Origin: a virus
Strand: one strand, 5' to 3'
DNA: 35,479 bases
UHGV virus genome: UHGV-0144289
In this document: one piece after another, positions 151-34,372 of the stretch
How positions within the stretch are numbered: the stretch's first letter is position 1
Layout: every line of letters starts with the position of its first letter
Position numbers and translations under genes: made by a program
The notes under the pieces: generated by a model
The model's input: only the letters and a program-made list of their open reading frames with translations
Database searches by the model: none
Told to the model about the DNA's origin: nothing

Positions 151-226
<76 letters not shown>

Positions 227-279
227 GTTTAAAAGGCATCGGCGTCAGCGGATGTCTGGCTGAAAGGCCTGAAGAATTT

Positions 280-353: not shown

Positions 354-365
354 CTTTCTTCCCGA

Positions 366-7242: not shown

Positions 7243-8235
7243 ATGAATATTTTGCCATTACTCGACAGGCCGATCGCCTTCCAGCGCAGTTTTATTCGTC
7301 TGGATATTGGTGTGACGGCTGCGCTGTTTCTATCACAAATGACCTACTGGACTAACCGGTCCGACGATGACGGATGGGTGTATAAAACTCAGGAAGAATG
7401 GGAAGAAGAAACCGGCCTTTCCCGCTATGAGCAGGAGGGGGCGCGTAAGAAACTCCGCTCAATTGGTGTACTACTGGAAAAAAGAAAAGGCGTTCCTGCG
7501 CGACTTTTCTACAAAGTAGATAATAACGTTTTATATCAGGTGCTTGCAGCTGCAAACAAGAATGCGGAAAAACCACATACTGGAATGCGGAAAACCACCA
7601 AACAAGTCAGGGGAAAACCAGCAAACTTTCTTACAGAGAATACTACAGAGAATATATATACCCCTAACCCCTTAGAGGAGGAAGGCGTTGAGTTAATTCT
7701 TTCTGATGCACAAAAAGCGCTGGAATTTTACAACGAGCAAACCGGTACCCGCTGCCGTGACCTGAAACCGTTTGTGATGATGCTGACGCCGACCACCACC
7801 CGGGAAGGGTACACACTGGACGAATTGCAGTTAGTTATCCGCTGGGTGCTGGCCACATGGCGCCGCCGTGGCGATAGCCTGCCGAAGCCAGCGAACATCT
7901 GCCGGGTAAACCGCTTTGATGGTTATCTCGCTGACGCTGAAGCATGGGCGGTGACCGAAACCGATATTGATCCGGAAGCCGTTATGAACGGCTACAACGA
8001 AATTTTTGCTGATGTTCTGCCCGCTGCTGAATTGGACACAGACCGCCGCCGGATGATCACCCGTCTGGCCGCCCATATGAAAAACAAAACCACGGGCGCA
8101 TTTCTGGGCTATTTCGAAAAATTCCGCGCTGACGCCTCCGATTTTTACTTTGGTGAAAATGGCGGATGGCGCGCCAGCTTTGACTACCTGATGAAGCCTG
8201 AAACATTGCGTAAAACTCGTGAGGGATCGCTATGA
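7243..8235 (+). CDS. Phage replication initiation / replisome organiser protein
   Basis: 330 aa; N-terminal winged-helix-like domain; directly upstream of and overlapping the helicase gene by 4 nt, the usual O/P-type arrangement. Confidence 0.6.
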   Translation: MNILPLLDRPIAFQRSFIRLDIGVTAALFLSQMTYWTNRSDDDGWVYKTQEEWEEETGLSRYEQEGARKKLRSIGVLLEKRKGVPARLFYKVDNNVLYQVLAAANKNAEKPHTGMRKTTKQVRGKPANFLTENTTENIYTPNPLEEEGVELILSDAQKALEFYNEQTGTRCRDLKPFVMMLTPTTTREGYTLDELQLVIRWVLATWRRRGDSLPKPANICRVNRFDGYLADAEAWAVTETDIDPEAVMNGYNEIFADVLPAAELDTDRRRMITRLAAHMKNKTTGAFLGYFEKFRADASDFYFGENGGWRASFDYLMKPETLRKTREGSL

Positions 8236-14492: not shown

Positions 14493-14789
14493 ATGCCGCT
14501 GGTCGCCACCTTCCGTACAGACTGGTTCAGAGTCATTACCGACCTGACCCGAAAAAATCTCACCACTCAGCAAATCGCCGATGAACTTGGCGTTTCAAAA
14601 TCCGCCGTCCTCGGCTGGAAATCTGGATCAGAGCCTCGCCATGGTCACGGTGAAGCGCTGATTGCTCTCTGGTGTCTGGCTACCAGCTCAGACCGTAAAA
14701 AACTCCCCACAGTGCTTTACCGCCAGTGGTGGACGTTCCGCCGCCCTGTTTTTGGTCGGGAAACTGACCAGAAGGGCAACACACAATGA
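14493..14789 (+). CDS. HTH DNA-binding protein, candidate late-gene regulator
   Basis: 98 aa; HTH LTTQQIADELGVSKSAVLGW; last regulatory-looking gene before the virion module. Confidence 0.55.
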   Translation: MPLVATFRTDWFRVITDLTRKNLTTQQIADELGVSKSAVLGWKSGSEPRHGHGEALIALWCLATSSDRKKLPTVLYRQWWTFRRPVFGRETDQKGNTQ

Positions 14790-15267: not shown

Positions 15268-15489
15268 ATGTGTGGTAGCGCACCAAAAGTTGTTCAGTCA
15301 GACCCGCAGGCCGAAGCCGACGCAGCAGCAGACGCAGCGGCCAAAGCTGCGAACGCTGACGCAGCAGCGCGCAAAAAGCGCAAACAGGGATCATCCCTGC
15401 TGGCCAGCGGCGCAGAAGGCGCAACGGATACAGGTTCTTCCCTGCTGTCCACTGGCGCACAGGCCGCAAAAAATACGTTAGGGGCTTAA
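15268..15489 (+). CDS. Small Ala-rich protein, paralogous to the N-terminal part of the 162-aa internal protein at 22827
   Basis: 73 aa; starts MC..., contains QAEADAAADAAAK and two GSSLLxxG motifs shared with the proteins at 17335 and 22827. Confidence 0.55.
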   Translation: MCGSAPKVVQSDPQAEADAAADAAAKAANADAAARKKRKQGSSLLASGAEGATDTGSSLLSTGAQAAKNTLGA

Positions 15490-18633: not shown

Positions 18634-18656
18634 CACCGTGACCAGTCACAACCAGA

Positions 18657-18683
18657 AGCCAGCCTAACCCGCTGGCTTTTTTA
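18657..18683 (+). terminator. Intrinsic terminator upstream of the capsid gene
   Basis: Hairpin AGCCAGC-CTAACCC-GCTGGCT followed by TTTTTTA. Confidence 0.65.
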
Positions 18684-18686
18684 TTT

Positions 18687-18702
18687 GGTCGGGATTCCGA
18701 CC
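18687..18702. repeat. Late-region hairpin motif GGTCGGGATTCCGACC, copy 1
   Basis: 6-bp stem/4-nt loop palindrome; identical 20-mer TTGGTCGGGATTCCGACCGC also at 31396-31415. Confidence 0.8.
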
Positions 18703-18852
18703 GCGCACCTCGATAACAATCACTCCATAACCAGCCCGGCGGGGACGCCGGATACCTGATTTCTCCCGCAATGCGCCAGCGCCAACCGCATTGTGCAGAT
18801 TTGGGCCGGGAAACCGACACCCCGCAGGCGATTTTTTACTGGAGTGATTTTT

Positions 18853-19758
18853 ATGTCATTTGATGCAAACAAGAACATGATCACCGCTGCGTTTGTTACG
18901 CAGTTTCATGATTCTTTCGAAATTGCTGCACAGCAAAAGGATTCGCGCCTGCAAGCGGCTGTCCATGACCGTGGCAGCATCACCGGTGCGTCGTTCACCA
19001 TCAACGATATGGGTACCATTGAGATGAACCAGATCACCACGCGTTTCGGTGATACCGTCTGGGATGTTCCGGAAGCCGGTACCCGTAATGCGCTGATGGC
19101 CGACTACGGCGTTTTCGTCCCGGTCGAGAAACGCGACCTGCGCAAGCTGATTGCCGACCCGCAGGGGCCGTATTTGCAGCTCACCCTGTCCGCCGCCAAC
19201 CGCAAAAAAGACGATGTAATTTACCGCGCGCTGCTCGATGCGGTACTGCGTAAGACTGAGAACAACGGCGCGTATGCATCCGTTACCCTCCCGGCCTCGC
19301 AGAAAATCGTTGCTGGCGGTACTGGCATGACCAAAGCCAAACTGATCGCAGCAAAAGCGATGTTCCGCCGTAACGAATGTGACGAGCAGAACGGCGAAGA
19401 GCTGTACATGACGTACAACGCCGACATGCTGACGCAGATCCTCAGCGATACCACGCTGACCAGCGCCGACTTTATGGCGGTGAAAATGCTTCAGGAAGGT
19501 TCGGTGTCGTCTAAATGGCTGGGCTTTAACTGGCTGGCATACGAGAAGCTGGATTCTGCCACTGCCGAAAACGTCACCACCAAAACCGCCGCCGCCTGGT
19601 GTAAGTCCGCTGTGCATTTCGGTACCGGCGCTGAGTACAACGTCGATATCGGCCCGCGTCGCGATAAAAATAACACCATCCAGATTTCCGTTGATGCGTC
19701 CTATGGCGCTGGCCGCGCCAACGAGAAAAAAGTCGTTGCCATCGATTTTGTAGCATAA
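18853..19758 (+). CDS. Major capsid protein
   Basis: 301 aa from the ATG at 18853; follows the scaffold gene, has a long structured 5' leader and is followed by a terminator, as is typical for highly expressed capsid genes. Confidence 0.65.
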   Translation: MSFDANKNMITAAFVTQFHDSFEIAAQQKDSRLQAAVHDRGSITGASFTINDMGTIEMNQITTRFGDTVWDVPEAGTRNALMADYGVFVPVEKRDLRKLIADPQGPYLQLTLSAANRKKDDVIYRALLDAVLRKTENNGAYASVTLPASQKIVAGGTGMTKAKLIAAKAMFRRNECDEQNGEELYMTYNADMLTQILSDTTLTSADFMAVKMLQEGSVSSKWLGFNWLAYEKLDSATAENVTTKTAAAWCKSAVHFGTGAEYNVDIGPRRDKNNTIQISVDASYGAGRANEKKVVAIDFVA

Positions 19759-19771
19759 AGCCGCTGGTACC

Positions 19772-19801
19772 TTTGCCGGGGGATCCCTCCCGGCCTTTTT
19801 T
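19772..19801 (+). terminator. Terminator-like hairpin after the capsid gene
   Basis: GCCGGGGGATCCCTCCCGGC followed by CTTTTTTT. Confidence 0.55.
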
Positions 19802-19817
19802 CATCTGAGGTAAGGCT

Positions 19818-20381
19818 ATGGCTTCCAGTATCTCTATCTGTTCTAACGTACTGCTGGCGCTCGGCGCTCATCCCATTAACAGCTTCGACGAAGCGACCGA
19901 ACACGCCCGCCTGTGCTCCAATATTTACCCTACCGTACGCAATGACCTGCTGCGAAAACATCCATGGAACTGCGCGGTAAAACGCGTCGTGCTCTCACCG
20001 TCCAGCACCGCGCCCGCGTTTGGTTTCGGCTACCAGTTCCCGCTGCCGGGCGATTTAATCCGGATCCTGTCCGTTGGCCGTGAGTATGAGGATATCGGGT
20101 ACCGCGTTGAAGGAAACCGCCTGCTGGCGAATCAGAACGTAATTTATCTGCGCTACCTGTTTCGTAACGAGGATGAATCGACGTGGGATTCGTCGCTGGT
20201 CAATCTGGCCGAAGCGTTCATGGCCGCAAAGCTGGCGTACGCCGTCACCGGCTCCGCGAGTCTGCGCGACAGTCTGACGCAGGAAGCTGCATTCCTTCTT
20301 CGCCAGGCCAAATCTATCGACGGACAGGAAGAACCGCCGGAAACGCTGGACGGCTATCCAACTTATGAATCGAGGTTCTGA
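19818..20381 (+). CDS. Tail tubular protein A-like (T7 gp11-like)
   Basis: 187 aa; size and position after the capsid gene match T7 gp11. Confidence 0.5.
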   Translation: MASSISICSNVLLALGAHPINSFDEATEHARLCSNIYPTVRNDLLRKHPWNCAVKRVVLSPSSTAPAFGFGYQFPLPGDLIRILSVGREYEDIGYRVEGNRLLANQNVIYLRYLFRNEDESTWDSSLVNLAEAFMAAKLAYAVTGSASLRDSLTQEAAFLLRQAKSIDGQEEPPETLDGYPTYESRF

Positions 20382-22372
20382 TGCGCGCGAACCTAATAAA
20401 AACCAATTTTACCGCGGGTGAAATTTCCCCGCGCCTGATGGGGCGTGTTGATATCGCCCGCTATGCCAACGGTGCAAAAATTATCGAAAACGCGGTGTGC
20501 GTGGTGCAGGGCGGTGTCGTTCGCCGACCGGGTACGCGCTTTGCCGCTGCCGCTAAATATGGTGACCGGACAGCACGACTGATCCCCTACGTCTTTAACC
20601 GCTCGCAGGCGTACATGCTCGAATTTGGCGACGGGTATCTGCGCATCTACCAGAACGGCCGGCAGCTGGTAAACGACGATAATACCCCGTATGAAATCGC
20701 CAGCCCGTACACCGTCGATATGTTGTCTGAGGTGAATTACGTGCAGGGCGCTGACACGATGTTTTTAGTGCACCAGAGCGTCCCGCCGCACCGCTTGCAG
20801 CGTAAGGGGCAAACTGATTGGGTACTGGAAGCCGCGCCGTTTATCGTGGAACCATTCGACGAAATCCGCGACACGCCGGAGAAATGGTGTAAGCCATCGG
20901 TTAAAGAATTCGTCGGCTCAGAAATCACGCTGACGCTCAGTGATGCCGAACCCGCAGATGATGACGATTCCCCCGCGTTTACTGGTACCGGCTGGATATC
21001 GGAGGACGTTGGTTCGTACGTTCGCATTAACAGCGGTCTGGTGCTAATTAAGAGCATCACCAGCGCGCAGATTGCTGTCGGCACCATCCGCACCGATTTA
21101 AGCGCAACGCAGGCGGCATCCCCCGGAGCCTGGACACGTGAAGATACTGTCTGGACGGAGGAATTTGGCTACCCCGGCGCGGTGACGCTGTACCAGCAGC
21201 GGCTGGTTCTGGCTGGTTCCCCGCAGTACCCGCAAACAATCTGGTGGAGCGAAACCGGCGTTTACCTGTCGTTTGAGCTGGGAACGGACGACGACGACGC
21301 GATCAGCTTTACGCTGTCTTCTGACCAGTTAAACCCGATCGTGCATCTGGCGCAGATGAATACGCTTATCGCGCTGACGTACGGCGGCGAGTTTACAATC
21401 ACTGCCGGCAGCGACGCGGCGATCACCCCGACCAATATTTCGGTAAAAAATCCCAGCCCGTACGGCTGCAACAGCATTCGCCCGGTTCGTGTCGGTACCG
21501 AAATTATGTTTATCCAGCGTGCCGGGAAAAAACTGTATGCCGTGGCGTATGACCCCGACAGCTACGTTTCGTATTCCGCCAATGATTTAACGGTGCTGGC
21601 CGAACACATCACGGCCGGCGGCGTCCTCGATATGGCGTATCAGCAACAGCCTGATGCGTTCGTGTGGCTGATCCGCGCCGATGGCGTACTGGTGACGATG
21701 GGTATCGACCGGGCGCAGGATGTAGTCGCATGGTCACGCCAGATCACCGATGGCGTTTTTGAATCGGTGGCGAGTATTCCCTCGGAAAGCGACGACGTGA
21801 TTTATGTTCTGGTGCGCCGGGAAGTTAACGGCCAGACCGTTCGTTATGTTGAAGTATTCGACAGCAACCTGAATACCGATTCCGCAGTAACCGGCTCCAG
21901 TTCAGAAGGTGCCACCACGTGGACAGGTCTTTCTCACCTCAATGGAAAAACGGTTGATGTGGTGGCCGATGGTTCCGTGATGCCGCAGGCAACGGTAACA
22001 GACGGGCAAATCACTCTCAGCCGCAAAGCGAAAAAAATCGAAGTAGGCCTGCATTACGAAACCACCATCCAGACGCTGACGCCGGAAATCTCAACGACCG
22101 AAGGCACCACGCAGAACGCCCGCAAGCGTACCAGCGAAGTCACGCTCCGCTTTATGGAAACCACTGGCGCGGAGTGCAACGGTCAGGTGATCCCCTTCCG
22201 TACCTTCGGCCCAAAAATCCTTAACCAGCCCGCGCCACTTTTCACCGGTGATCATTATTTCGGGAAACTTGGCTGGGAGCGCGGGGAAGACACTTTGATT
22301 ATTCAGCAACGCCAGCCGCTGCCGTTTCATCTGCTGGCGATTATTTTCACGTTCTCCAGCAACGGGGGCTAA
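20381..22372 (+). CDS. Tail tubular protein B-like (T7 gp12-like)
   Basis: 663 aa; size and position match T7 gp12; start overlaps the previous stop. Confidence 0.5.
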   Translation: MRANLIKTNFTAGEISPRLMGRVDIARYANGAKIIENAVCVVQGGVVRRPGTRFAAAAKYGDRTARLIPYVFNRSQAYMLEFGDGYLRIYQNGRQLVNDDNTPYEIASPYTVDMLSEVNYVQGADTMFLVHQSVPPHRLQRKGQTDWVLEAAPFIVEPFDEIRDTPEKWCKPSVKEFVGSEITLTLSDAEPADDDDSPAFTGTGWISEDVGSYVRINSGLVLIKSITSAQIAVGTIRTDLSATQAASPGAWTREDTVWTEEFGYPGAVTLYQQRLVLAGSPQYPQTIWWSETGVYLSFELGTDDDDAISFTLSSDQLNPIVHLAQMNTLIALTYGGEFTITAGSDAAITPTNISVKNPSPYGCNSIRPVRVGTEIMFIQRAGKKLYAVAYDPDSYVSYSANDLTVLAEHITAGGVLDMAYQQQPDAFVWLIRADGVLVTMGIDRAQDVVAWSRQITDGVFESVASIPSESDDVIYVLVRREVNGQTVRYVEVFDSNLNTDSAVTGSSSEGATTWTGLSHLNGKTVDVVADGSVMPQATVTDGQITLSRKAKKIEVGLHYETTIQTLTPEISTTEGTTQNARKRTSEVTLRFMETTGAECNGQVIPFRTFGPKILNQPAPLFTGDHYFGKLGWERGEDTLIIQQRQPLPFHLLAIIFTFSSNGG

Positions 22373-22824
22373 TGATGATCCGTAATGCAACCGCCGGTGA
22401 TATTCCGGCGCTTATCGAACTGGGAACCCGGATGTACCTGGAATCCCGCTATTCCGAAAACTCACCCTTTGACGCGGACAAATGCGCGGAACTGGCTGAG
22501 AGCCTGATTTATTCCCCCGCCGGATGCGTGCTGGTGGCAGAGAAAAACGGCCTGGTGATTGGCTGGCTCGGCGGCGGCATCGCGGAGCAGTTTTTTTCCC
22601 GCCAGTTGATGGCGTTTGAATATGGCCTGTTCGTCGCTCCGGAGTACCGGGGCGGCAGCGCGGGCCCACGGCTGGCCCGTGCATTTATCGAATGGTCGAA
22701 AGAACACGGCGCCGCAGTGATCAACATGGGGATCACCACGGGCGTCCATGCCGAACGTACTGGCCAGCTTTATTCCCGCCTCGGTCTGCAACGTACCGGG
22801 CTGCTTTATTCGATGGAGGTTTAA
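22372..22824 (+). CDS. GNAT-family N-acetyltransferase
   Basis: 150 aa; acetyl-CoA binding motif region LFVAPEYRGGSAGPRLARAFIEW; embedded between tail and internal virion protein genes. Confidence 0.7.
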   Translation: MMIRNATAGDIPALIELGTRMYLESRYSENSPFDADKCAELAESLIYSPAGCVLVAEKNGLVIGWLGGGIAEQFFSRQLMAFEYGLFVAPEYRGGSAGPRLARAFIEWSKEHGAAVINMGITTGVHAERTGQLYSRLGLQRTGLLYSMEV

Positions 22825-22826
22825 CG

Positions 22827-23315
22827 ATGTGTACAGGTGTTGAAATCGCACTGGTGGCTTCTTCGGTTCTCGCTGCTGGCGGGGCAGTGGCCAGCGGCCA
22901 GCAGCAAAAGAAAATGGCGAACTATCAGGCCGCGCAGGCTGAAGCCGACGCCGAAGCATCAAAAGCAGCGGCAAAAGTTGAAGCGGAGCGTATTCGTAAA
23001 GCCGGTCGCCAGCAGGCATCTGCCGCCAATGCTGCGTTGGCAGCTTCAGGCGTTGAGACGGGAGAGGGAACGGCGCTCCGTGTCACGTCAGGTATTGCAG
23101 GGGATGCGGAGCAGGACGCCTATCAGACAATCCTTAATGGCGTGAATTCTTCTAATCGCCTGCAGGCGCAGGCACAAGCCGACAGGATCAGCGGCAGTAA
23201 TGCGGCGACAGCGGGGAATATTAGTGCTGGCAGTTCATTACTTAGTGCTGGCGGAACTGCATACAGCGGCTGGAAAAAAGCAAAAACAGGCAAATACGGT
23301 TTATATGCGGAGTAA
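22827..23315 (+). CDS. Internal virion protein (T7 gp14-like)
   Basis: 162 aa; hydrophobic N-terminus, Ala/Gln-rich; shares motifs with the 73-aa protein at 15268. Confidence 0.5.
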   Translation: MCTGVEIALVASSVLAAGGAVASGQQQKKMANYQAAQAEADAEASKAAAKVEAERIRKAGRQQASAANAALAASGVETGEGTALRVTSGIAGDAEQDAYQTILNGVNSSNRLQAQAQADRISGSNAATAGNISAGSSLLSAGGTAYSGWKKAKTGKYGLYAE

Positions 23316-23320
23316 GTGAC

Positions 23321-26032
23321 GTGAGAATTCCAACGGGTAATTTTGGTAATGTGACACCGCAGGCACAGCAGACGCGTGTCGCTGTTAGCAATGTAGGCAC
23401 TATAGGCAATGCGGTGTCTGGTTTTGGGACCGCTACAGGGCAGGTAGCAGAACAAGTACAGCATGAGCAGGATAAAGCCGATGTGGCAGCCACGCAGGCG
23501 ATTCTGACTGATCTGGAAGCTAAATCTAATGACCGCTGGGAAAACCCGGAGACGGGCGCCACGGTCACTCGTCAGGGCTTTAAATCGTCCGGTGTGGTAA
23601 CCGATATGGATAAGGCCGACGCTGGCGATTACGAGGAAGCGCGGAAGCGCGTACCGCCCAACCAGTTAAACTATTTTGATGCGCAGTGGAAAGCAGGGCA
23701 GGTACGCCGGACAAGTACCTACAGCGGTTTCGAGCGTGCACAGACGGATGAGGCCCAGCGGCAGCAGCTTAATGCGACGGTGACCACTTCCGTCGAACAA
23801 GAGGCCAGCGCATACGATAATCCGATGCAGGCAGGGCTGATACGTAGCGCCCGTAAACACTCGATCGAGATGTATGGCCAGGCGCGTGGCTGGCCGCAGG
23901 AGCGCATCGACGCGGCGGTATCAGAAGCGAACCAAAAAGCGCTGGAGCAGCGCGCGCAGAACTACGCGGTAACCAATCCCACTGGCTGGCTGAATGGCGA
24001 TTTTACGTTGATTAACAGCAGCACCGGCGAACTCGATATGCGCGCCGTTGGCCTGGTGGAGTCCGGTGGTAAGCACCGCAATGCGGATGGTAGTCTTGTT
24101 ACATCGCCCGCTGGCGCGCAGGGTGAATTTCAGTTGATGCCGGACACAGGGAAAGAACTGGCGGCTAAACGTGGCGTGGAATACAACCCGGACGATCCTG
24201 TGCAGCATGCGCAGCTGGCGCGTGATTATGCCGGGCAGCTCAGTAAAAAATACCAGTCAGAACCACTGGCCGGGGCCGCGTATAACTGGGGGATGGGTAA
24301 CGTCGATAAACTGATCGCCAAAGTGGGCGACCCGCGCAAAGGCGAAATCTCGATGGCGGATTTCGTTAAGCAGCTACCCGCAGAAACGCGCGGTTGGTTG
24401 TCCCGCTACAACAAAAATAAAACCGGTCTCGACCCGGTAGCAGTAAACAAAATCGACAATATCGCCGAAGCGCAGATCCGGCAGCAGCGTACGGCGCTGC
24501 GCCAGCAGATTGACCCGATTCTCAATAATACAATGGCGCAGCTGTATAACGGCGAGGTGCCGGATGCTATGCCGAACGCCTCCACCATTTTGTTTGCGTA
24601 TGGTGAGCAGGGGCAAACAGCGGTCAAGCAGCTGGATATCGCGATTGATAACGCCAGAACCTTCCAGGCTATTCAGTACGCCACCCCGGCAGAACAGCAG
24701 GCCGAACTGGCGAAGGTGAAGCCGCAGGCAAACGATCCCGATTTTGCGCTAAAACTTGATGCACACGGCAAACTTAGCGCGCTGGTGCAGAAGAGCAACG
24801 CCAATATTCAGGCGCAGCGCGACTCCGCCCGCTTTAACGATGCGCTGCTCTCCGGCGAGAAACTCGACCCGAGCAATAAATCTATGCAGAGGGCGGCGGA
24901 CAATACGCCATCGGCGCTTAATTTCCGCATTAACGATGCAACCACCCACGATGCTATCGTACAGCAGGTAAACCAGACCGGCATTGTTCCGTCGCAGGTA
25001 ACATCACAGCTCAATGCTATTTCCCGCTCCAGTAGCTCAGATGTAGTGAAGCAAGGCGCTGAAATATTCAATAGGCTTTACGACTCTAAATCTTCTAACG
25101 TCAGTGATATGCCAAAAGATATACAAAGTTTTTATCTGACAATTAAGCAATTGACCGAAGCTGGTATGGCTTCTGATGAGGCAGTGAAACAGGCACAGAA
25201 TATAACCTATAACCAGAACGATGCATTAAAAAATCAGTTAACTTCGACGCAGAGCACTAAAGAATATAAAAGCGAGCGAGATAGTGCTATGGATTCAGCT
25301 CGAAATAGTATGGCTCAGTGGTTCAGAATTGATCCAAAGGCAAGCGATACAACAACTGATGCAGTTAATTTTCGAAATGACTACCAGTCCCTTTACGATA
25401 TCAACTATCGAAATTCTGGTGGGAATTCTGAAATTGCCAAAAAAATGACCAACACTCAAATCTCTCGTAACTGGAGCATTAGCGAAGTGAACGGCAAGGC
25501 CCAGTTCATGAAATATGCACCAGAAGCACTATATAACTTTGGTCCGTCAGGTTGGCAGGCTGAACTGTGGAAAGAAAAAAAAGAGGAACTAATGTATGGC
25601 GAGCGTAATGAGGAGATCTCTACCAGCCCAACGCAGTTAGGAATCACGTCAGGAACTGCAACAAATATTATCTCAAACACCCCCGAGTCTAAAGTTGGTG
25701 GTGAATTGGAAATTGTGCCTGATGTATATACTCCAAGAATTAAAGATTATGCAATTTGGATTCGCTTTAAGGATAAAGATGGTAATGAAAAGGCACAGCC
25801 TTATAACGACAAATTTGGTAGGCAAATGCGGTGGAGGCCATCCCTAGAGGAATGGGGGCCTTACCAGAAAATGCAGAAGGAACGAGAGCAGAAAGAACAG
25901 GATGAAATTTCGCGCGGAAAAGATATTCGCGGATTTAAAGCGAAACATCGAGCATTGGATGAGCAGTACCAGCGTTTGCATGATGAGCGACTTGAACGTA
26001 CGAAAAATTATTTTTCATGGAGTAATGAATAA
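23321..26032 (+). CDS. Internal virion / ejection protein with lytic transglycosylase domain
   Basis: 903 aa; transglycosylase-like motif GLVESGGKHRNADGSLVTSPAGAQGEFQLMPDTG around nt 24050-24180, as in the N-terminal domain of T7 gp16. Confidence 0.65.
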   Translation: MRIPTGNFGNVTPQAQQTRVAVSNVGTIGNAVSGFGTATGQVAEQVQHEQDKADVAATQAILTDLEAKSNDRWENPETGATVTRQGFKSSGVVTDMDKADAGDYEEARKRVPPNQLNYFDAQWKAGQVRRTSTYSGFERAQTDEAQRQQLNATVTTSVEQEASAYDNPMQAGLIRSARKHSIEMYGQARGWPQERIDAAVSEANQKALEQRAQNYAVTNPTGWLNGDFTLINSSTGELDMRAVGLVESGGKHRNADGSLVTSPAGAQGEFQLMPDTGKELAAKRGVEYNPDDPVQHAQLARDYAGQLSKKYQSEPLAGAAYNWGMGNVDKLIAKVGDPRKGEISMADFVKQLPAETRGWLSRYNKNKTGLDPVAVNKIDNIAEAQIRQQRTALRQQIDPILNNTMAQLYNGEVPDAMPNASTILFAYGEQGQTAVKQLDIAIDNARTFQAIQYATPAEQQAELAKVKPQANDPDFALKLDAHGKLSALVQKSNANIQAQRDSARFNDALLSGEKLDPSNKSMQRAADNTPSALNFRINDATTHDAIVQQVNQTGIVPSQVTSQLNAISRSSSSDVVKQGAEIFNRLYDSKSSNVSDMPKDIQSFYLTIKQLTEAGMASDEAVKQAQNITYNQNDALKNQLTSTQSTKEYKSERDSAMDSARNSMAQWFRIDPKASDTTTDAVNFRNDYQSLYDINYRNSGGNSEIAKKMTNTQISRNWSISEVNGKAQFMKYAPEALYNFGPSGWQAELWKEKKEELMYGERNEEISTSPTQLGITSGTATNIISNTPESKVGGELEIVPDVYTPRIKDYAIWIRFKDKDGNEKAQPYNDKFGRQMRWRPSLEEWGPYQKMQKEREQKEQDEISRGKDIRGFKAKHRALDEQYQRLHDERLERTKNYFSWSNE

Positions 26033-28935: not shown

Positions 28936-28939
28936 TAGC

Positions 28940-29374
28940 CTAGTTACACGAACTAACAGTAACTGCATTGAAGAATGTTCCGGAGGGGTAGGTGTAAACA
29001 TATTGCATCTCCCCACCTAATCTAATGAATGAACCCAGTGGATTTTTATTCGTGCATAACCCATTTTTTGTTATTTCATCCATTCGAGATTTAGCAACGT
29101 CGATTGAAGTATGGGTCTCTGAAGCGGTAGCCAGCATTTCTTCTTCGGTTACGCCTAGCCTTACCTGCGCGATTATTTTGTTTCCATCAGCAGAAACATC
29201 TTTCATTATTACGTTTTCTGATAACGTTAAGGGCAGTCTGGGGCGTACCTGAGTGACGATTTTCTGAGCCTGTTCGCATACATCAAACTCAGTTAAGTTT
29301 GGTTTACACTTATCTGCTGCGAATGCCGGATGTGAGATCATTACTAATATCGAAATTAGACCAATTTTTTTCAT
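28940..29374 (-). CDS. Secreted protein of unknown function (moron, opposite strand)
   Basis: 144 aa; N-terminal signal peptide MKKIGLISILVMISHPAFA-AD; four Cys in the mature part; AT-rich; has its own A/T-rich promoter region at 29375-29460. Confidence 0.7.
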   Translation of the reverse strand: MKKIGLISILVMISHPAFAADKCKPNLTEFDVCEQAQKIVTQVRPRLPLTLSENVIMKDVSADGNKIIAQVRLGVTEEEMLATASETHTSIDVAKSRMDEITKNGLCTNKNPLGSFIRLGGEMQYVYTYPSGTFFNAVTVSSCN

Positions 29375-29463
29375 GAAAAATAAACGCCTTTAGCTGAGTG
29401 TTAGGTATAAGAAACATTTAACAAAAAACCATACAGCGATCAATTTTATAATTAGATTAGAAA

Positions 29464-29480
29464 TAGTCAGGATTCCGACC
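29464..29480. repeat. Late-region hairpin motif TAGTCAGGATTCCGACC, copy 2
   Basis: Same 17-mer at 34300-34316; preceded by a TATAAT-like element. Confidence 0.8.
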
Positions 29481-29527
29481 TCTAAGCCGACACATCATAG
29501 CCCTATGGATAAACACGGGGCTTTTTT

Positions 29528-29869
29528 ATGCATTCAGATTACAAAACTCGCCTTACTGCTCTTAGCGATAAGCTCACCGACGTAGTTCTGGAAGAAGCCG
29601 ATCCGGATAACTGGCCGGGGGCAGGGAAGGAAATCACAAAGCACACTAAACAGGAACGCGGTGATCGGTACTGGCATAAGAAGAACGCGGCCGCATCGCT
29701 GACGCTGCTGGTAAAAGTCCATTCGCTGATTGGCATGCATACGCGCGGGGGGACGCCTAAACCCGGCGAGGATCCGGACGATGAAGCATTCCGCCTGGGG
29801 CAACAGGTATCTGCGGCTGAACGGGCAGCACAGGAAGTTATCGAACGCATACAACAGCGGAAAAAATGA
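29528..29869 (+). CDS. Putative terminase small subunit
   Basis: 113 aa; immediately upstream of and overlapping the large-subunit gene by 4 nt; assignment by position only. Confidence 0.4.
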   Translation: MHSDYKTRLTALSDKLTDVVLEEADPDNWPGAGKEITKHTKQERGDRYWHKKNAAASLTLLVKVHSLIGMHTRGGTPKPGEDPDDEAFRLGQQVSAAERAAQEVIERIQQRKK

Positions 29870-31476
29870 TTTCATTCGTCGCCTTTTTCATCATATGGGC
29901 GGAGCGGATGGGGTGGGAGGTTCCCGACTGCCATTATCGAGCCTGCCACTGGTTGGAACACCGCGGGGATCTCGCGGTGCTTCGCTGTTTTCGTGGCTTT
30001 GGTAAATCTACCATTCTGGCGGTGTATAACGCATGGCGATATTACCAGAACCGCCAGTACCGCATTCTTCACCAGTCTGAAGCTGACGGCACCGCGTACA
30101 AAACCAGCCGCGATACGCAGAACGTTTTACGCAATCACCCACTGACCAAAGGCATGCTACCGGACGGACAGGGAACCGTTGAACAGTGGTGGGTTAACGG
30201 CTCTCTGGATATGCGTAACGGCAGCATGTACGCAAAGGGGATCCTCTCTAACGTTACCTCGGCCCGCGCTGATGAATGCCAGAACGATGACGTAGAAGTA
30301 CCCCGCAATATCCAGACGCCAGAGGCGCGGGAAAAGCTGCGTTATCGTCTCGGTGAACAGACACACATTCTTGTCCCCGGCGGGCGAAAGCTGTTTATCG
30401 GCACGCCGCATACCCACGATAGCCTTTACGATGAGGTTGAATCTATGGGCGCCGACTGTCTGACCATCAAACTATTCGGTAAAGAATTTAGAATCGAGGA
30501 AAAACAGGCCACTGCGAGCCGTTACTCGTTACCGTTCCGGCCGGAATATGTTTTCGTCGGTATTCACATTGGCGCGCGACTGCTCGTTGAAGGTGTTGAT
30601 TATCGTCTTAACGATGACGGTATCGAGTTTGCCGAGGCTCCCGGCACCACGGTTGACTGTTACGCCGATTGTGAATGGCCAGAAAGGTTCACTCCGGAGG
30701 AAATGACAAAGCGCCGTCGCGAGACTCGCACAATTAACGAATGGGACAGCCAGTACCAGCTGCACAGTAAACCGGTTGGCGAGGTTCGTCTCGATCCCGA
30801 CCGCATACGCGAATACAACGTACAGCCTGAAATCCGGTACGCGAACCGCTCCTGCTCGATGTGGCTTGGCCAGACGCAAATTGTTGGTGCTGTTGCCTGG
30901 TGGGATGTGGCCACCGGCAAAGTTAAGGCCGACGCCTCGGCGTTCTCTCTGATTTTCACCGACGCACGCGGGCATCTGTACTGGCATGTTTGCCAGGGGC
31001 TTACGGGCGAACTGGCGGAATTCGACGACAACGACAAAATCACCGGCGGTCAGGTGATGCAGATTAAAGAGCTGGTGCTTAAATACCAGATCCCGCTGGT
31101 CTGCGTCGAGGTGAACGGCCCGGGCAGCTTTGCCGGGAAATTGCTGATTCAGGCACTAAAGGGTACCGGCTGCGGCGTACGGGAAGAATTCAGCGTGACC
31201 AATAAACAAAAGCGCATCCTCGATGCATTCGAAGCGCCGCTGTCGTCGCGCTTCCTCTGGGCGCATACCGACGTGCTCGACGGCCCAATGTATGACCAGA
31301 TGCGCGACTTTAACCCGGCGCTGACTAATCAGCCAGATGACTTTATCGACTCTGGCTCTGGCGCAATCAGCTCAACACCAGTGCGCATTGGTAAATTGGT
31401 CGGGATTCCGACCGCACAGGCGCGGGAACATTGGCAACCAAATGATGGCGATCACATGGTCGCCGTAGATTACTAG
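29866..31476 (+). CDS. Terminase large subunit (T7 gp19-like)
   Basis: 536 aa; Walker A-like FRGFGKST in the N-terminal ATPase domain, acidic catalytic residues downstream; size matches T7-type terminases. Confidence 0.8.
   Translation: MISFVAFFIIWAERMGWEVPDCHYRACHWLEHRGDLAVLRCFRGFGKSTILAVYNAWRYYQNRQYRILHQSEADGTAYKTSRDTQNVLRNHPLTKGMLPDGQGTVEQWWVNGSLDMRNGSMYAKGILSNVTSARADECQNDDVEVPRNIQTPEAREKLRYRLGEQTHILVPGGRKLFIGTPHTHDSLYDEVESMGADCLTIKLFGKEFRIEEKQATASRYSLPFRPEYVFVGIHIGARLLVEGVDYRLNDDGIEFAEAPGTTVDCYADCEWPERFTPEEMTKRRRETRTINEWDSQYQLHSKPVGEVRLDPDRIREYNVQPEIRYANRSCSMWLGQTQIVGAVAWWDVATGKVKADASAFSLIFTDARGHLYWHVCQGLTGELAEFDDNDKITGGQVMQIKELVLKYQIPLVCVEVNGPGSFAGKLLIQALKGTGCGVREEFSVTNKQKRILDAFEAPLSSRFLWAHTDVLDGPMYDQMRDFNPALTNQPDDFIDSGSGAISSTPVRIGKLVGIPTAQAREHWQPNDGDHMVAVDY
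31398..31413. repeat. Late-region hairpin motif GGTCGGGATTCCGACC, copy 3 (inside the 3' end of the terminase gene)
   Basis: Part of an identical 20-mer shared with 18685-18704; ~80 nt upstream of the tail-fibre start. Confidence 0.8.
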
Positions 31477-31493
31477 CCGCCGGAGTTCCTCGT

Positions 31494-34013
31494 ATGTCGG
31501 TACCGAACCAGACACCCTATAACATCTATACCGCCAACGGGCTGACGACTGTCTTTGCCTATGAGTTTTACCTGATCAGCGCCAGCGATATTCAGGTCAC
31601 AATCAACGGCAACGAAGTAACGTCCGGCTATACAGTGTCTGGTGTGGGTAATACTGGCGGTGGCGAAGTTACTTTTCTGACCGCGCCGGCCAATGGCGCT
31701 ACAGTCATTTTTGAACGTGTAACGCCGACTTACAGGCTCACTGATTACCAGGACAACGGCGACCTGCTGGCCGATACAGTTAACAAAGATTTTGACCGTC
31801 TCTGGATGGCTATTCAGCGCGCGTTTATTTATCTCGGAGTGGCCCTAAGTCGCCCGCTGTTCGGCGGTGGACCTTTCAACGCTAACGGCTACCGGATAGC
31901 AAATCTGGCCGATCCAGTTAACGATCAGGATGCAGCTACTAAAAAATTTGTAATTGAAAATGGAAAAATTAATCTAGCTCGTACTCTACGCGTTCCGGAG
32001 TCTAGCATCACACCGTTACCTTCCATTGCAGAACGAAAAAATAAAATCGTTGCAATGGATAATAATGGCAATCCATTGATGGTATTGCCTTCGAGTGGAA
32101 GTGCAGCAGATGTAATGATTGAGTATGCCAAACCGACAGGTAGCGGGCATATAGGGGTTCTTACTGGAGGCACCGTTGAAGATGCAATAAAATACGTAAC
32201 CCCTGAAATGATAAGGATTAATGGTGAAAGATATATTCACGGCATCACTGCTGATGCAACTAAATTTCTACAGGCAGCTATAGATTACGGAAAAGCTAAT
32301 AACCTTCCGGTATATTTAACTAAAATGTATCCGTGCATATCTTCACCGATAGAGTTTAATTTGCCATTCGACGATGGGACTGTATACCCAGGGTGGATAG
32401 GGAACGGTGATTCAAATATTGCTCCTGAAATACCAGTTAAGGCAAAAGCAGCACTGCGTGTTTATGATGATTCAATGATTGTTGGTGAAAACCAACACAA
32501 TTGTGGGATTATTGGTAATTTTTCAAAAACTGCGGGACCATGGGATCATACATCTTCCATGGGTCTATACATCGCAGGTGACAGCGGACCAGATCAATAC
32601 ATAAAGTATCACCTTTCTGATTTCAGGATTAGCGGATTCTTTATTGGGCAATGGGTAGACGGGACTGTAAACCGCTGTGTAGAAAATAATATGATGTACT
32701 CAGGGTGTGCCATTCCTGCTTGTTATCAAGGATCTGATTCTCTGGCGCAAACTGGGCTGACATTATATTGGTATAATATTACAGGCCCTGTTTTTGGCGG
32801 GCGCTGGCTAACGAGAAATCATGCATACGCGTCTCAGTACCTTCCGCCGTACCCGGCATCAGATATTCATCGGGCGGGATGGAATGATTCGTACCATGTA
32901 GACAAGTTTCATTATTATGGTGATACCGGCATGGACTGGACACATCCAGCATATGCCGCTCTTGACACTTGGTTTGATACGTATGTTTTCAAGTCTGCAA
33001 ACTGCTTGCCTACGGCCAGCGGTGGTCGGTTGTCAAATAATCAGCAGAATGGGGTTTACCCAGTTGATACCTATAGAGGTATAGCTGGGCGCGCAAGAAC
33101 TATTATTTCACTTCCGGGAAGGGAGATATTGCATTGCAATATTGGTGAGGCTAAAGTGCTGTGGTCTCCAAGAACGCCATTCTACCACTCTGCTCAATTC
33201 GTTGACGGATTTAAATCATATGTTGGTAACAGTAAAATAAGGACTCTTATACTGGAAAGGGTAGGAATCATCAAGTATGGCCTTGGTGATGTTGCTGGAA
33301 ATAGATTTAATGTTAATAATGTTGATCCCTACGAACCATCTCTTTCAACATTTCCAGCGATGGCAACAAGAGGAAATATTTTCGCCCTTGATATTGTAAA
33401 AGGTGGCGCGGTTCAGGCTGCCCCAGTTAATGAATTTAACGGCACAAGAATCGGTGCCGGTGAGAATATAGTTGCTCAAAGAAAGCTTGGAGATAATTCA
33501 AACTATCGTCTTTTCGGTCTTCAGGAGTTAAACGGAACAAATTTATCCGATAAGTATGTTTTTAATCGAAATGATGCCTATATGCCGCCAATAGCTTTTC
33601 CCGGTGGTAATGCTGCTCAGTTTAAGTATCTTTATGGCACATTCGCACCAACTATTACAATTGGCGGCGCAAGCGTAATACCATCATCCATTATTGGAAT
33701 TTACCGTCGGTTTGGTGATGTTGTTCGTTGCGATATAAGGGTCAGATCAACCTCTTTACTGGTTAGCACTGCGGGCGCCATAGTAATTAGTGGTCTTCCT
33801 TTTACAGCCGCTTCTATACAGGAGGGTGGGTCTAAAGGAAGCATAATTCTTAGTACGGCTACAGGGGTTTTAGTTATGCCGCTTGTTCCTGCTGGGACAA
33901 ATCAAATGACGATTATTAAATCGTCAGCCCAAGAAATATATTCTCAAGCAGCTGGTACTTTTGATTTCACTCTCCAGTGTACTTTTGATTATGTTGTTCC
34001 TTTTAATTCATGA
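31494..34013 (+). CDS. Tail fibre / tailspike: T7 gp17-like N-terminal adaptor fused to a large receptor-binding (probably polysaccharide-depolymerase-like) domain
   Basis: 839 aa; N-terminal ~150 aa resemble the T7 gp17 N-terminus (GYRIANLADPVNDQDAATKKFV versus T7 GRRIVNLANAVDDRDAVPFGQL, from memory); the remainder is AT-rich, Asn/Gly/Tyr-rich. Confidence 0.85.
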   Translation: MSVPNQTPYNIYTANGLTTVFAYEFYLISASDIQVTINGNEVTSGYTVSGVGNTGGGEVTFLTAPANGATVIFERVTPTYRLTDYQDNGDLLADTVNKDFDRLWMAIQRAFIYLGVALSRPLFGGGPFNANGYRIANLADPVNDQDAATKKFVIENGKINLARTLRVPESSITPLPSIAERKNKIVAMDNNGNPLMVLPSSGSAADVMIEYAKPTGSGHIGVLTGGTVEDAIKYVTPEMIRINGERYIHGITADATKFLQAAIDYGKANNLPVYLTKMYPCISSPIEFNLPFDDGTVYPGWIGNGDSNIAPEIPVKAKAALRVYDDSMIVGENQHNCGIIGNFSKTAGPWDHTSSMGLYIAGDSGPDQYIKYHLSDFRISGFFIGQWVDGTVNRCVENNMMYSGCAIPACYQGSDSLAQTGLTLYWYNITGPVFGGRWLTRNHAYASQYLPPYPASDIHRAGWNDSYHVDKFHYYGDTGMDWTHPAYAALDTWFDTYVFKSANCLPTASGGRLSNNQQNGVYPVDTYRGIAGRARTIISLPGREILHCNIGEAKVLWSPRTPFYHSAQFVDGFKSYVGNSKIRTLILERVGIIKYGLGDVAGNRFNVNNVDPYEPSLSTFPAMATRGNIFALDIVKGGAVQAAPVNEFNGTRIGAGENIVAQRKLGDNSNYRLFGLQELNGTNLSDKYVFNRNDAYMPPIAFPGGNAAQFKYLYGTFAPTITIGGASVIPSSIIGIYRRFGDVVRCDIRVRSTSLLVSTAGAIVISGLPFTAASIQEGGSKGSIILSTATGVLVMPLVPAGTNQMTIIKSSAQEIYSQAAGTFDFTLQCTFDYVVPFNS

Positions 34014-34020
34014 GGCAAAT

Positions 34021-34290
34021 ATGACTTTCAGAGTGACGCAGACTATAGGGAAATCTATAGCATACCCAACGCTAGGTGTATGGATGCCACCAGAAGATAC
34101 TTCGATTGAGGTTGAATACCAGGCTGTATCGTTAATATCGCTAAATAATGGAACAGCGACTGTTTCATTTAAAGTTAGCATTGATGGTTGTCTTTCCAGT
34201 GGGGAGCTTACCCATTCTTTTGTCTACTCTGGGTCTGGAAGCCCTCTTGAAGAGGCAGAGGAATCACTTAAAAGCAAACTCGTAATATAG
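34021..34290 (+). CDS. Small protein downstream of the tail fibre (possible fibre accessory/chaperone)
   Basis: 89 aa from the ATG at 34021; same low GC as the fibre C-terminal domain. Confidence 0.45.
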   Translation: MTFRVTQTIGKSIAYPTLGVWMPPEDTSIEVEYQAVSLISLNNGTATVSFKVSIDGCLSSGELTHSFVYSGSGSPLEEAEESLKSKLVI

Positions 34291-34300
34291 AATTTCATTT

Positions 34301-34316
34301 AGTCAGGATTCCGACC
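34301..34316. repeat. Late-region hairpin motif AGTCAGGATTCCGACC, copy 4
   Basis: Upstream of the lysis cassette; preceded by a TAGAAT-like element. Confidence 0.8.
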
Positions 34317-34372
34317 TTAGCTTCGCCTTACCCTCGCATCATTCCACATAGTGATCCCCATGGGGGTAAGGC

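Follow-up and report, generated by a model that had tools for sequence, protein, structure and literature searches.

Why should one short, nearly palindromic sequence recur ahead of the late genes of a phage genome? The window analysed here is the whole 35,479-nucleotide stretch of virus genome UHGV-0144289, and the repeat in it is probably a switch, worked by a small DNA-binding protein that the phage encodes just upstream. In full, our reading is that this “box” forms the upstream half of five late promoters at which host RNA polymerase depends on an activator, the candidate being a 98-aa HTH protein. Judged from sequence comparison, we would give this a probability of roughly 70%.

The 16-mer box is found at 18687-18702, 29465-29480, 31398-31413, and 34301-34316, always on the + strand. 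Searching the window with it returned six matches (two being reverse-strand readings of palindromic copies) versus 0.04 expected in shuffles, so the four copies listed in a preliminary description of this DNA are sound. That description called all of them perfect palindromes with a 6-bp stem, which is true of copies 1 and 3 only (arms GGTCGG/CCGACC). Copies 2 and 4 have arms AGTCAG/CCGACC with two uncompensated A·C mismatches, and a predicted RNA hairpin energy of −2.1 versus −11.1 kcal/mol for copies 1 and 3. The identical 20-mer reported for the first pair and the common sequence reported for the second are both present, TTGGTCGGGATTCCGACCGC in copies 1 and 3 and TAGTCAGGATTCCGACC in copies 2 and 4. 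There is also a fifth, diverged copy, GGTCGGGAAACTGACC (14754-14769), which lies within the HTH gene's 3′ end, 47 nt 5′ of the ATG at 14817. In a PWM scan of both strands of the whole window, the five boxes score 32-47 bits, all on the + strand, and nothing else exceeds 8 bits. The earlier reading had missed both this fifth copy and an nAnnnT hexamer that lies 12 nt downstream of every copy.

The same oriented layout accompanies every copy in ~160 related phage loci, which yielded 298 unique contexts for the statistics. From 5′ to 3′ it consists of an AT-rich AWTTR, a 16-bp imperfect dyad with the consensus (G/A)GTC(G/A)G-GA(W)(W/C)-C(C/T)GACC, a spacer that is always 12 nt long and whose sequence is not conserved, and a hexamer nAnn(A/C)T. 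Counting from the box start, position +28 is A in 288 contexts and +32 is T in 288 (1.74 bits each). Information in the spacer is 0.08-0.5 bit at each of its 12 positions. The pattern nAnnnT stands at offset 12 in 286/298 contexts (96%); the background is 5.2%, and no other offset exceeds 15%. As a control, 120 chance 15-mer occurrences in unrelated genomes had the hexamer in three (3%) and the upstream AWTTR in none. The single control match with both hexamer and AWTTR is a true prophage of the box-bearing phage family. Relatives do not keep the TATAAT-like hexamers previously noted 5′ of copies 2 and 4, and no position further than 6 nt upstream exceeds 0.4 bit in them.

A bipartite, oriented architecture of fixed spacing, under purifying selection, stands before each late unit. 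In the window, this gives five predicted promoters, listed here with their PWM scores and predicted units.

14748..14787, + strand: P-late-0, with upstream TTTTT(G), box GGTCGGGAAACTGACC at 14754-14769, 12-nt spacer, and −10-like CACAAT at 14782-14787; 32 bits, predicted start ~14794; 146-aa ORF (ATG 14817), 73-aa ORF, portal, scaffold, and 138-aa ORF.
18681..18720, + strand: P-late-1, with box GGTCGGGATTCCGACC at 18687-18702, spacer, and −10-like AACAAT at 18715-18720; 46.6 bits, predicted start ~18727; capsid gene (ATG 18853) to internal virion proteins.
29459..29498, + strand: P-late-2, with box AGTCAGGATTCCGACC at 29465-29480, spacer, and −10-like CATCAT at 29493-29498; 44.6 bits; small and large terminase genes (ATG 29528).
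31392..31431, + strand: P-late-3, with box GGTCGGGATTCCGACC at 31398-31413, spacer, and −10-like GAACAT at 31426-31431; 45.7 bits, inside the large-terminase ORF at its 3′ end, with box codons V-G-I-P-T; tail-fibre gene (ATG 31494).
34295..34334, + strand: P-late-4, with box AGTCAGGATTCCGACC at 34301-34316, spacer, and −10-like TACCCT at 34329-34334; 42.6 bits; lysis cassette (holin ATG 34373).

Looking for the motif at equivalent junctions of related phages, as had been proposed, does recover it: in YeP4, each of the five junctions again carries one site, and box, N12, and CACACT persist in a GC-rich lineage. Each junction class (146-aa ORF, capsid, TerS, fibre, lysis) has 32-53 different spacers, with the A and the T kept. 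The site orthologous to P-late-0 occurs in nearly all of 80 portal-centred relatives, and nAnnnT is present in 74/75 orthologous capsid instances (34 different spacers), 79/81 TerS instances (43 spacers), and 46/48 lysis instances (32 spacers). Among relatives, the capsid promoter almost always has a perfect dyad, and the left arm is usually weakened (AGTCAG) at the terminase and lysis promoters, which suggests that promoter strength is graded.

The A and T of the hexamer match the A−11/T−7 signature of a sigma70-type −10 element, and it is from sequence that we infer the start sites and the use of sigma70. Numbering the hexamer −12 to −7 places the dyad at about −40 to −25 with its centre near −32.5; its half-sites (−40..−35 and −30..−25) then straddle the expected position of a −35 hexamer. 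That position holds GGATTC, a 0/6 match to TTGACA, and no consensus sigma70 promoter was found at any late junction of the window. The −10-like hexamers are without the usual T at −12.

What, then, would read the box? No phage RNA polymerase or sigma factor is present among the annotated ORFs of the window. The candidate late activator is encoded as follows.

14493..14789, + strand: 98-aa HTH protein, last gene of the early-right operon; its 3′ end holds box 0.

This is the position that Q has in lambda. The protein matches PHROG 16553 and, weakly, Pfam HTH families, and its AlphaFold model (pLDDT 85-91 over residues 10-70) has an XRE/lambda-repressor-like fold. Virtually every relative that covers the region has the HTH gene just 5′ of the first box (−31 to +770 nt upstream). 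YeP4 retains a homolog, 50% identical, in an early region that is otherwise different (DNA polymerase/primase type). The relative vB_EcoM_APEC is HTH-less and also without the box, and L081 has both a diverged recognition helix and a changed box, GTCAAGATTTCGACC, at both junctions, although this link between HTH and box variation is drawn from very few lineages. Among the options offered in the preliminary description was that a late activator binds these sites, for instance the HTH protein at 14493; this is the option that the evidence favours, now sharpened to a full promoter architecture.

On this reading, early rightward transcription would yield the 98-aa XRE-fold protein as the product of the last early gene, and a dimer (or higher oligomer) of it would occupy the dyad. 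It would then recruit or stabilise the sigma70 holoenzyme at promoters that are inactive alone, switching on five units: head assembly, capsid-to-ejection proteins, terminase, tail fibre, and lysis. The units would be insulated by terminators just 5′ of boxes 0 and 1; these, and an additional box-like element, are located as follows.

14726..14744, + strand: terminator-like hairpin and T-run inside the HTH gene at its 3′ end and immediately 5′ of P-late-0, from a consensus scan only.
18654..18680, + strand: intrinsic terminator (10-bp stem and T-run) that directly adjoins P-late-1.
18797..18818, + strand: second element resembling the box but degenerate, ATTTGGGCCGGGAAACCGACA, within the 5′ leader of the capsid gene.

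The T-tract of the terminator at 18654..18680 doubles as the AT-rich upstream element of P-late-1, and the order of terminator then box is kept in YeP4 and most relatives. The element at 18797..18818 is without a −10 hexamer at +12; it is kept in YeP4, L284, and ~20 relatives, and may be an extra regulator site.

It is unlikely, if still worth serious thought, that the promoter architecture is right and the reader of the box is something else, be it another phage protein (e.g., the 146-aa product of the first late gene), a conserved host factor, or the host holoenzyme directly, with the HTH protein a repressor or operator-binding protein that silences the late promoters, or unrelated. PHROGs labels the HTH family “transcriptional repressor,” and Acinetobacter phage TPWB-05 carries a 41% identical homolog and yet no box. 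The XRE-type dimer C.AhdI represses from a site centred near −29 and activates from −44 (PMC2275141), so a dyad centred at −32.5 is not automatically in an activating position. Nevertheless, promoters with 0/6 at −35 and a weak −10 are unlikely to fire alone, so a positive factor would still be needed. A host reader fits less well than a phage-borne one with a box that is constant from Klebsiella, Yersinia, Serratia, and Pectobacterium to the GC-rich lineage, and, beside the late module, YeP4 and the window share no non-structural gene except that of the HTH protein. The 146-aa protein, for which searches gave no recognisable function, is a possible co-factor; its gene, however, is downstream of box 0 and would therefore itself be a late gene.

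That the box acts as RNA is far less probable still, whether as a hairpin in the 5′ leader or one that gives stability, as an RNase III-type site for processing between late genes, or as a boxB-like hairpin for antitermination. A stable 6-7 bp hairpin (−11 kcal/mol) would indeed form from copies 1 and 3, and some loops are GAAA, a GNRA tetraloop. But the hairpin energies of the promoter classes span −11 to −1.6 kcal/mol, with whole classes at −2.1 and −1.6, and at least one arm pair is broken in 107/208 unique sites. G-to-A changes at box positions 0 and 4 (74 and 71 of the 208) leave A·C at pairs 0/15 and 4/11 and are essentially never compensated on the opposite arm, and Fisher tests over the same sites found no arm covariation. 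One doubly compensated site, GTCAGGATCCTGACC, does occur, and the L081 variant changes both arms (G5-C10 to A5-T10); a dimeric DNA-binding protein predicts such symmetric changes equally well.

Selection acts on the DNA sequence rather than on structure, as the terminase-embedded copy makes plain. It sits, as first described, within the 3′ end of the large-terminase ORF, and the argument that a copy in coding sequence implies selection on the nucleotides now has numbers behind it: among 67 unique sequences, third-codon-position entropy is 0.00 in the four fourfold-degenerate box codons and at T−7, and 0.5-1.9 bits in the flanking codons. An RNA role would leave no function for the A/T hexamer at its fixed distance or for the AT-rich flank with its orientation, and no Rfam family matched. 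Moreover, the −10 hexamer lies 12 nt 3′ of the box, which is thus 5′ of the predicted start, so transcripts from each promoter would not contain it. The leader hairpins and the processing sites suggested earlier therefore both lose their footing, given arms that are not compensated and stability that is not conserved; T7-type RNase III substrates, in addition, have stems far longer than 6 bp.

We can give next to no credence to a replication or packaging site (an origin iteron for an O-like initiator, or a terminase recognition site, pac), since, although the origin iterons TGTCGGAAAATCCGACA (four copies, inside the O gene) of E. coli phage vB_EcoM_APEC resemble the box core, the window's own iterons (GGAATGCGGAAAAACCAC, three copies at 7553-7627) are unrelated to it, the boxes are single and dispersed before late operons rather than tandem, YeP4 has boxes and yet a replication module of another kind, lacking an O protein, and the rigidly spaced −10-like hexamer would be left unexplained.

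How do activator-dependent late promoters of this design compare with known systems? T4 middle promoters likewise pair a sigma70-type −10 with a phage-specific box, the MotA box at about −30, in place of the −35. MotA, however, binds a non-palindromic box as a monomer and relies on a co-activator, AsiA, that remodels sigma region 4, and no AsiA or MotA homolog was detected in the window. P1 late promoters have a −10 hexamer and, in place of the −35, a conserved 9-bp inverted repeat, which differs from the window's dyad in its sequence and in its centre near −22. They too are a dispersed late set with a common sequence, many promoters answering to one phage-encoded factor, Lpa (PMC8198154).

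The C proteins of restriction-modification systems are small XRE-fold dimers that bind palindromes around −35 and activate sigma70 transcription via region 4 (PMC2275141), and the best fold matches of the 98-aa model include C.BclI, C.AhdI, C.Kpn2I, and C.EcoT38IS. C-boxes differ in sequence and come as two operators (activation at −44, repression at −29), whereas the window has one dyad per promoter and no restriction-modification context.

The lambda CII promoters (P_RE, P_I, P_aQ) have a very poor −35 and a weak, noncanonical −10, and depend absolutely on CII, a phage HTH protein of ~97 aa (PMC2613000). CII contacts both sides of the −35 as a “class IV” factor (bioRxiv 10.1101/2025.05.02.651988), and half-sites flanking the −35 are the geometry that we would expect in the window. 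Homology of the 98-aa protein to CII is unproven: similarity is weak and confined to the HTH region (hhalign probability 23%), and PDB profile matches have E about 0.5. CII reads direct repeats, TTGC-N6-TTGC, as a tetramer at lysogeny promoters, whereas the window has an inverted repeat serving the whole late region.

The late promoters of Mu (Plys, PI, PP, Pmom; protein C, Mor/C family) differ in their dyad centre, −43.5 versus about −32.5, and in an unrelated box sequence, and the window's XRE/lambda-repressor-like candidate has no Mor/C Pfam match. They are alike in being several and dispersed, with a recognisable −10, without a −35, and with an imperfect dyad of 16 bp overlapping the −35 region that is bound by C, a small phage HTH reader from the preceding temporal class, and they are served by the host sigma70 holoenzyme (PMC2582627), as the window's promoters would be. 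In their logic, the five late promoters thus appear similar to those of Mu C or lambda CII.

The repeated element in the window is real and biologically meaningful, but it had been mis-described. Four copies were reported, and all four are present on the plus strand, against 0.04 matches expected from shuffled sequence; the longer strings said to be common to pairs of copies are also correct. The perfect 6-bp stem attributed to every copy holds for copies 1 and 3 only, as copies 2 and 4 read AGTCAG...CCGACC and carry two A.C mismatches. A fifth copy, box 0 (GGTCGGGAAACTGACC), occupies the last codons of the gene for a 98-aa helix-turn-helix (HTH) protein, just before the first late open reading frame (ORF). 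Scored with a position weight matrix derived from the relatives, the window yields these five sites and no others, at 32-47 bits, and all else on both strands stays at 8 bits or less. We read these repeats as the activator boxes of five bipartite late promoters, and not as a family of hairpins.

Box copies and the start codons below the predicted transcription starts
14754-14769, box 0, within the end of the plus-strand HTH gene; start codon of the 146-aa ORF at 14817
18687-18702, plus strand, box 1; start codon of the capsid gene at 18853
29465-29480, plus strand, box 2; start codon of the small-terminase gene at 29528
31398-31413, plus strand, box 3; start codon of the tail-fibre gene at 31494
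34301-34316, plus strand, box 4; start codon of the holin gene at 34373

The phage itself is temperate and is integrated beside three tRNA genes. The left part of the window is lambdoid, with an integrase, a Gam-like protein, an exonuclease, CI/Cro/CII-like regulators, an O-like initiator with a DnaB-type helicase, NinB, and HNH nucleases. The right part is a T7/BPP-1-like podovirus virion module comprising the portal, a Bbp19-like protein, scaffold/protease, capsid, tail tubular proteins A and B, an acetyltransferase, gp14/15/16-like internal virion proteins, small and large terminase, tail fibre, and lysis genes.

Features at the left end of the window
151-449, three tRNA genes, the only Rfam 15 matches, adjoining the integrase gene on its left
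583-1599, minus strand, integrase gene

The tRNA/integrase area (151-449) is probably the prophage/host junction and attachment region. Within the O-like replication gene (7553-7627) there are three repeats with a 23-bp period, GGAATGCGGAAAA(A)CCAC, which are likely origin iterons. Before the portal gene, a 73-aa ORF (15268-15489) encodes an Ala/Lys-rich protein that begins MCGSAPK and presumably resembles T7 gp6.7 (MCFSPK...).

Transcription of T7-like virion modules normally falls to a phage RNA polymerase. Neither such a polymerase nor a phage sigma factor was found among the window ORFs annotated with PHROGs or Pfam; by the same annotation the 727-aa ORF codes for an exonuclease and the large virion proteins resemble gp15/gp16. 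It follows that host RNA polymerase must transcribe the late genes, and promoters for a T7-like single-subunit enzyme can be set aside because the polymerase gene is absent from the annotated ORFs.

The closest sequenced phages are Yersinia phages YeP4-6. A related terminase occurs in more than 500 IMG/VR contigs and a related portal in at least 396, and the names attached to sources of the HTH protein are Klebsiella, Raoultella, Citrobacter, Serratia, and Pectobacterium. The preliminary description had proposed looking for the motif at equivalent junctions of relatives, and YeP4 carries it at all five of them, five sites in total, although its DNA is ~77% identical to the window at best and mostly unalignable. 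The late promoters are conserved over hundreds of prophages.

For the promoter architecture we compared 80 portal-centred and 80 terminase-centred relatives, plus YeP4. Seen across these loci, the motif makes up one half of a bigger, oriented element. AWTT(G/A) lies directly upstream of a core of 15-16 nt, which is nearly invariant except for two R positions in the left arm, one Y in the right arm, and two or three middle bases. The 12 positions after the core hold almost no information (0.08-0.5 bit), and they are followed by a -10-like hexamer, nAnnnT, whose second base is A, and whose sixth base is T, in 288 contexts each out of 298 unique ones (1.74 bits apiece); across relatives the fifth base is A or C. 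Hexamers seen include AACAAT, CACACT, CACAAT, CATCAT, GAACAT, TACCCT, and TAAAAT. At an offset of 12 nt, nAnnnT is found in 96% of contexts, against a background of 5.2%, and at any other offset in 15% or fewer.

As a negative control, the exact pattern GTCRGGATTCCGACC was scanned over 185,579 genomes, the matches listed being single chance ones in unrelated taxa. Among those listed, 120 chance copies of the 15-mer in unrelated bacterial genomes were followed by the hexamer three times and preceded by AWTTR not once. The single control match with both hexamer and AWTTR is a prophage of this phage family. As a measure of host range the same scan is useless, since the matches listed include chance ones in unrelated taxa.

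Positions 2 and 6 of the hexamer correspond to A-11 and T-7, the bases that matter most in -10 elements of the sigma70 family. Such a combination, a box and an A....T both conserved and rigidly spaced around a freely drifting spacer, marks a promoter. With -12 to -7 assigned to the hexamer, the spacer runs from -24 to -13, the dyad from -40 to -25 with its centre at ~-32.5, and the AT-rich pentamer from about -45 to -41. The arms, whose positions derive from the fixed 12-nt spacer, fall at -40..-35 and -30..-25, so that the half-sites flank -35. The predicted transcription starts would lie 23 to 126 nt upstream of the late start codons. We put the probability that the five sites are late promoters of this two-part architecture at about 85%.

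Other promoter classes fit poorly. A consensus scan found no ordinary sigma70 promoter at any late junction. GGATTC at -35..-30 matches TTGACA at 0 of 6 positions, and spacers of 16 or 18 bp give at most 1 of 6. TTGGTC could serve as a -35 hexamer only with a spacer of 24 bp and is rejected on that ground. A sigma54 promoter has GG at -24 and GC at -12, 10 nt apart, but TTGGTCGGGATTCCGAC reads GA and not GC 10 nt after GG, and copies 2 and 4 have AG instead of GG. Compared by eye, none of the sigma54, sigma28, sigmaE, and sigma32 consensus sequences fits.

The preliminary description had offered three functions for the copies, namely a leader hairpin, an RNase III-type processing site, or a binding site for a late activator, and only the last survives. 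Two of the dyad's pairs vary among 208 unique sites. Pair 0/15 is G-C in 134 and A.C in 74, and pair 4/11 is G-C in 126, A.C in 71, G.T in 10, and A-T in 1. The variable pairs do not covary in this set (Fisher p = 0.10, in the wrong direction); each is broken, uncompensated, in ~35% of sites, and about half of all sites have at least one broken pair. The hairpin is predicted at -11.1 kcal/mol in the perfect copies, at -2.1 in the AGTCAG class, and at -1.6 in the variant of the related locus L081. A T7-type RNase III site is rejected because the stem is only 6 bp long, its pairs are broken without compensation, and its energy falls to as little as -1.6 kcal/mol. No box has an Rfam 15 match at the gathering score. 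Nor is the box an intrinsic terminator, given that a GC-rich 12-nt spacer follows it; the true terminators precede boxes 0 and 1.

The copy embedded in the terminase gene, which allows the cleanest test of DNA site against RNA hairpin, had been singled out as a sign of selection on the nucleotide sequence itself, and the synonymous positions bear this out. In 67 unique sequences, the entropy at fourfold-degenerate third positions is 0.5-1.9 bits in the flanks, and it is 0.00 bits at the third positions of GTC, GGG, CCG, and ACC within the box and at the hexamer T. A loop variant, ATT to AAA (31405-31407, TerL codon 514), replaces Ile with Lys in 14 of the 67 unique relatives. Frozen third positions together with a tolerated Ile to Lys change show selection on nucleotides, including a base 28 nt from the supposed stem. 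At TerL codon 514, the promoter sequence dictates the terminase protein sequence.

The A variants are also distributed by junction. The dyad is perfect in 38 of 44 unique sites at the capsid promoter, and A..A is found in 36 of 55 at the terminase promoter. Such class-specific variation reads more like adjustment of site affinity than like decay. When sites were clustered by downstream k-mers, the 146-aa-ORF and fibre classes merged, so that class counts from the clustering are approximate.

Strong intrinsic terminators stand upstream of boxes 0 and 1 and after the capsid gene, and with these the late region reads as five insulated units.

Terminator after the capsid gene
19775-19794, intrinsic terminator GCCGGGGGATCCCTCCCGGC followed by a T-run, directly after the capsid gene

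In its position it is reminiscent of T-phi, which follows gene 10 in T7, and it implies that some transcripts end before they reach the tail genes. Ahead of the capsid gene, the 5' leader holds a degenerate second box-like element, ATTTGGGCCGGGAAACCGACA (18797-18818), kept in YeP4 and ~20 relatives (at ~21462-21478 in the related locus L001, at 13838 in L284). It differs from the promoter box by one extra base and has no -10 hexamer at +12; it may be a further regulator-binding site or a leader element.

The small-terminase junction has peculiarities of its own. Between the predicted -10 and the ATG, the short leader holds a hairpin with a T-run, agCCCtatggataaacacGGGGcttttttATG (29499-29527 in the window, ~33033-33059 in L001), and the predicted small-terminase start falls inside the 5' arm of this hairpin; the arrangement in YeP4 is similar. 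On the minus strand, a sigma70-like promoter, CTGACT-16-TAAAAT (29443-29470), faces a divergent gene for a 144-aa moron protein (28940-29374, minus). The left arm of box 2 (AGTCAG), read on the other strand, supplies the -35 of this promoter, and because of this overlap activator binding could also shut off the moron gene. The overlap might help to explain the A-rich left arm at this junction.

Which protein reads the boxes? The HTH gene (14493-14789) comes directly ahead of the late region, in the position of lambda Q. The AlphaFold model of its product has a pLDDT of 85-91 over residues 10-70 and shows a five-helix XRE/lambda-repressor-like domain, whose nearest solved folds include the DNA-binding domains of P22 C2 and 434 Cro as well as C.BclI, C.AhdI, and C.Kpn2I, all of them palindrome-reading dimers. 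Essentially all relatives spanning this region have an HTH homolog just ahead of the first box, at -31 to +770 nt upstream of it. In YeP4 the whole early region is of a DNA polymerase/primase type, yet the HTH gene is kept in the same place at 50% identity. In a GC-rich lineage with a 57% identical HTH protein, box, spacer length, and hexamer are all identical. In L081, where the recognition helix reads AAKSSVIYWK versus VSKSAVLGWK, both junctions examined carry GTCAAGATTTCGACC with an 11-nt spacer. The related phage vB_EcoM_APEC has neither HTH gene nor box. On the other side, Acinetobacter phage TPWB-05 shares the late module and has an HTH homolog of 41% identity, and neither a box nor an obvious equivalent dyad was found in it. 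Also counting against an activator role, the PHROGs label of the HTH family is repressor.

On synteny and fold, rather than function, we lean somewhat towards the 98-aa protein as the activator of the late promoters. The combined statement, late promoters of the architecture described here with this protein as their activator, we hold to be quite probable. As an alternative regulator, the 146-aa first late protein gave no match in Pfam, NCBIfam, or PDB sequence searches.

Some details of these loci deserve recording. The C-terminal FGRETD of the HTH protein (residues 86-91, encoded at 14754-14771) is translated box 0; homologs that stop earlier leave the box intergenic, so the tail is probably a by-product of the overlap. 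In TPWB-05, a repeat, CACCCAACAAAC, with the form (C)ACCCA(A/C)CAAAC(C/A), recurs on the minus strand in at least five late intergenic regions (near 25740, 20860, 11950, 8440, and 3470), each time followed within 10-25 nt by a GC hairpin and T-run that directly precede the next gene; TPWB-05 may use this repeat as a late-transcription signal of its own. The CGGAAAATCCG repeats of vB_EcoM_APEC are not box equivalents, as they are origin iterons: four tandem copies of TGTCGGAAAATCCGACA lie inside its replication O gene (21960-22035), and the likeness of their core to the late-promoter box is probably coincidence.

We found no description in the literature of how polymerase-less temperate relatives time their late genes, a full-text library search returned the motif in no relevant context, and papers mentioning YeP4 or APEC-type phages do not discuss promoters. 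We would give even odds that the 98-aa protein founds an undescribed family of XRE-fold late activators, acting through an inverted repeat that straddles -35, a 'class IV' geometry like that of lambda CII, and governing the whole late regulon of a large and widespread group of temperate, polymerase-less T7/BPP-1-like podophages of Enterobacterales, to which more than 500 IMG/VR contigs belong. If so, a 40-bp element and one small protein would form a compact, portable, and orthogonal switch, in which the conserved G/A variation of the left arm would set how strong the capsid, terminase, and lysis promoters are relative to one another; the pair is small enough to try as a genetic tool. The analysis provides a testable promoter consensus, five mapped, if predicted, transcription units, and a single candidate regulator. 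This prophage group is common in Klebsiella, Raoultella, Citrobacter, Serratia, Yersinia, and Pectobacterium, and the analysis would improve operon and start-site annotation of its members.

Several known systems invite comparison. The controller (C) proteins of restriction-modification systems share only a weak likeness of fold with the HTH protein (E >=0.03, target-normalised TM ~0.55-0.7), and the C-box reading is rejected, as the surroundings offer neither a restriction endonuclease nor a C-box setting and the sites are dispersed through a phage late region. The C.AhdI XRE dimer, which activates from -44 and represses from -29 (PMC2275141), does offer a caution for the window dyad. Phage Mu shares the logic of the window late promoters: its four late promoters have -10 hexamers but lack a -35, and their 16-bp imperfect dyad is the binding site of C, a small HTH activator (PMC2582627). 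The Mu dyad, however, is centred at -43.5 rather than ~-32.5, and Mu C comes from another protein family; in the window, the HTH model shows an XRE fold, and small ORFs near the late region gave no Pfam, NCBIfam, or PHROG match to the Mor/C family. P1 Lpa and T4 MotA promoters, where a phage-specific box stands in for the -35, are analogues too.

The geometry of the window promoters, with half-sites on both sides of -35, is closer to lambda CII than to Mu. CII reads direct TTGC repeats, not inverted ones, and in this the window, with its inverted repeat, differs. The match of the HTH protein to CII is weak and confined to the HTH region: hhalign aligns 31 HTH columns at 32% identity with a probability of 23%, which is not significant, and profile matches to CII in the PDB are weak (E 0.5-0.7). 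The lambda promoter P_RE combines a very poor -35 and a noncanonical -10 with absolute dependence on CII (PMC2613000), and CII has been assigned to a class of factors with binding on either side of the -35 element (bioRxiv 10.1101/2025.05.02.651988). The late promoters described here would add a second natural example of an activator that straddles the -35 position.
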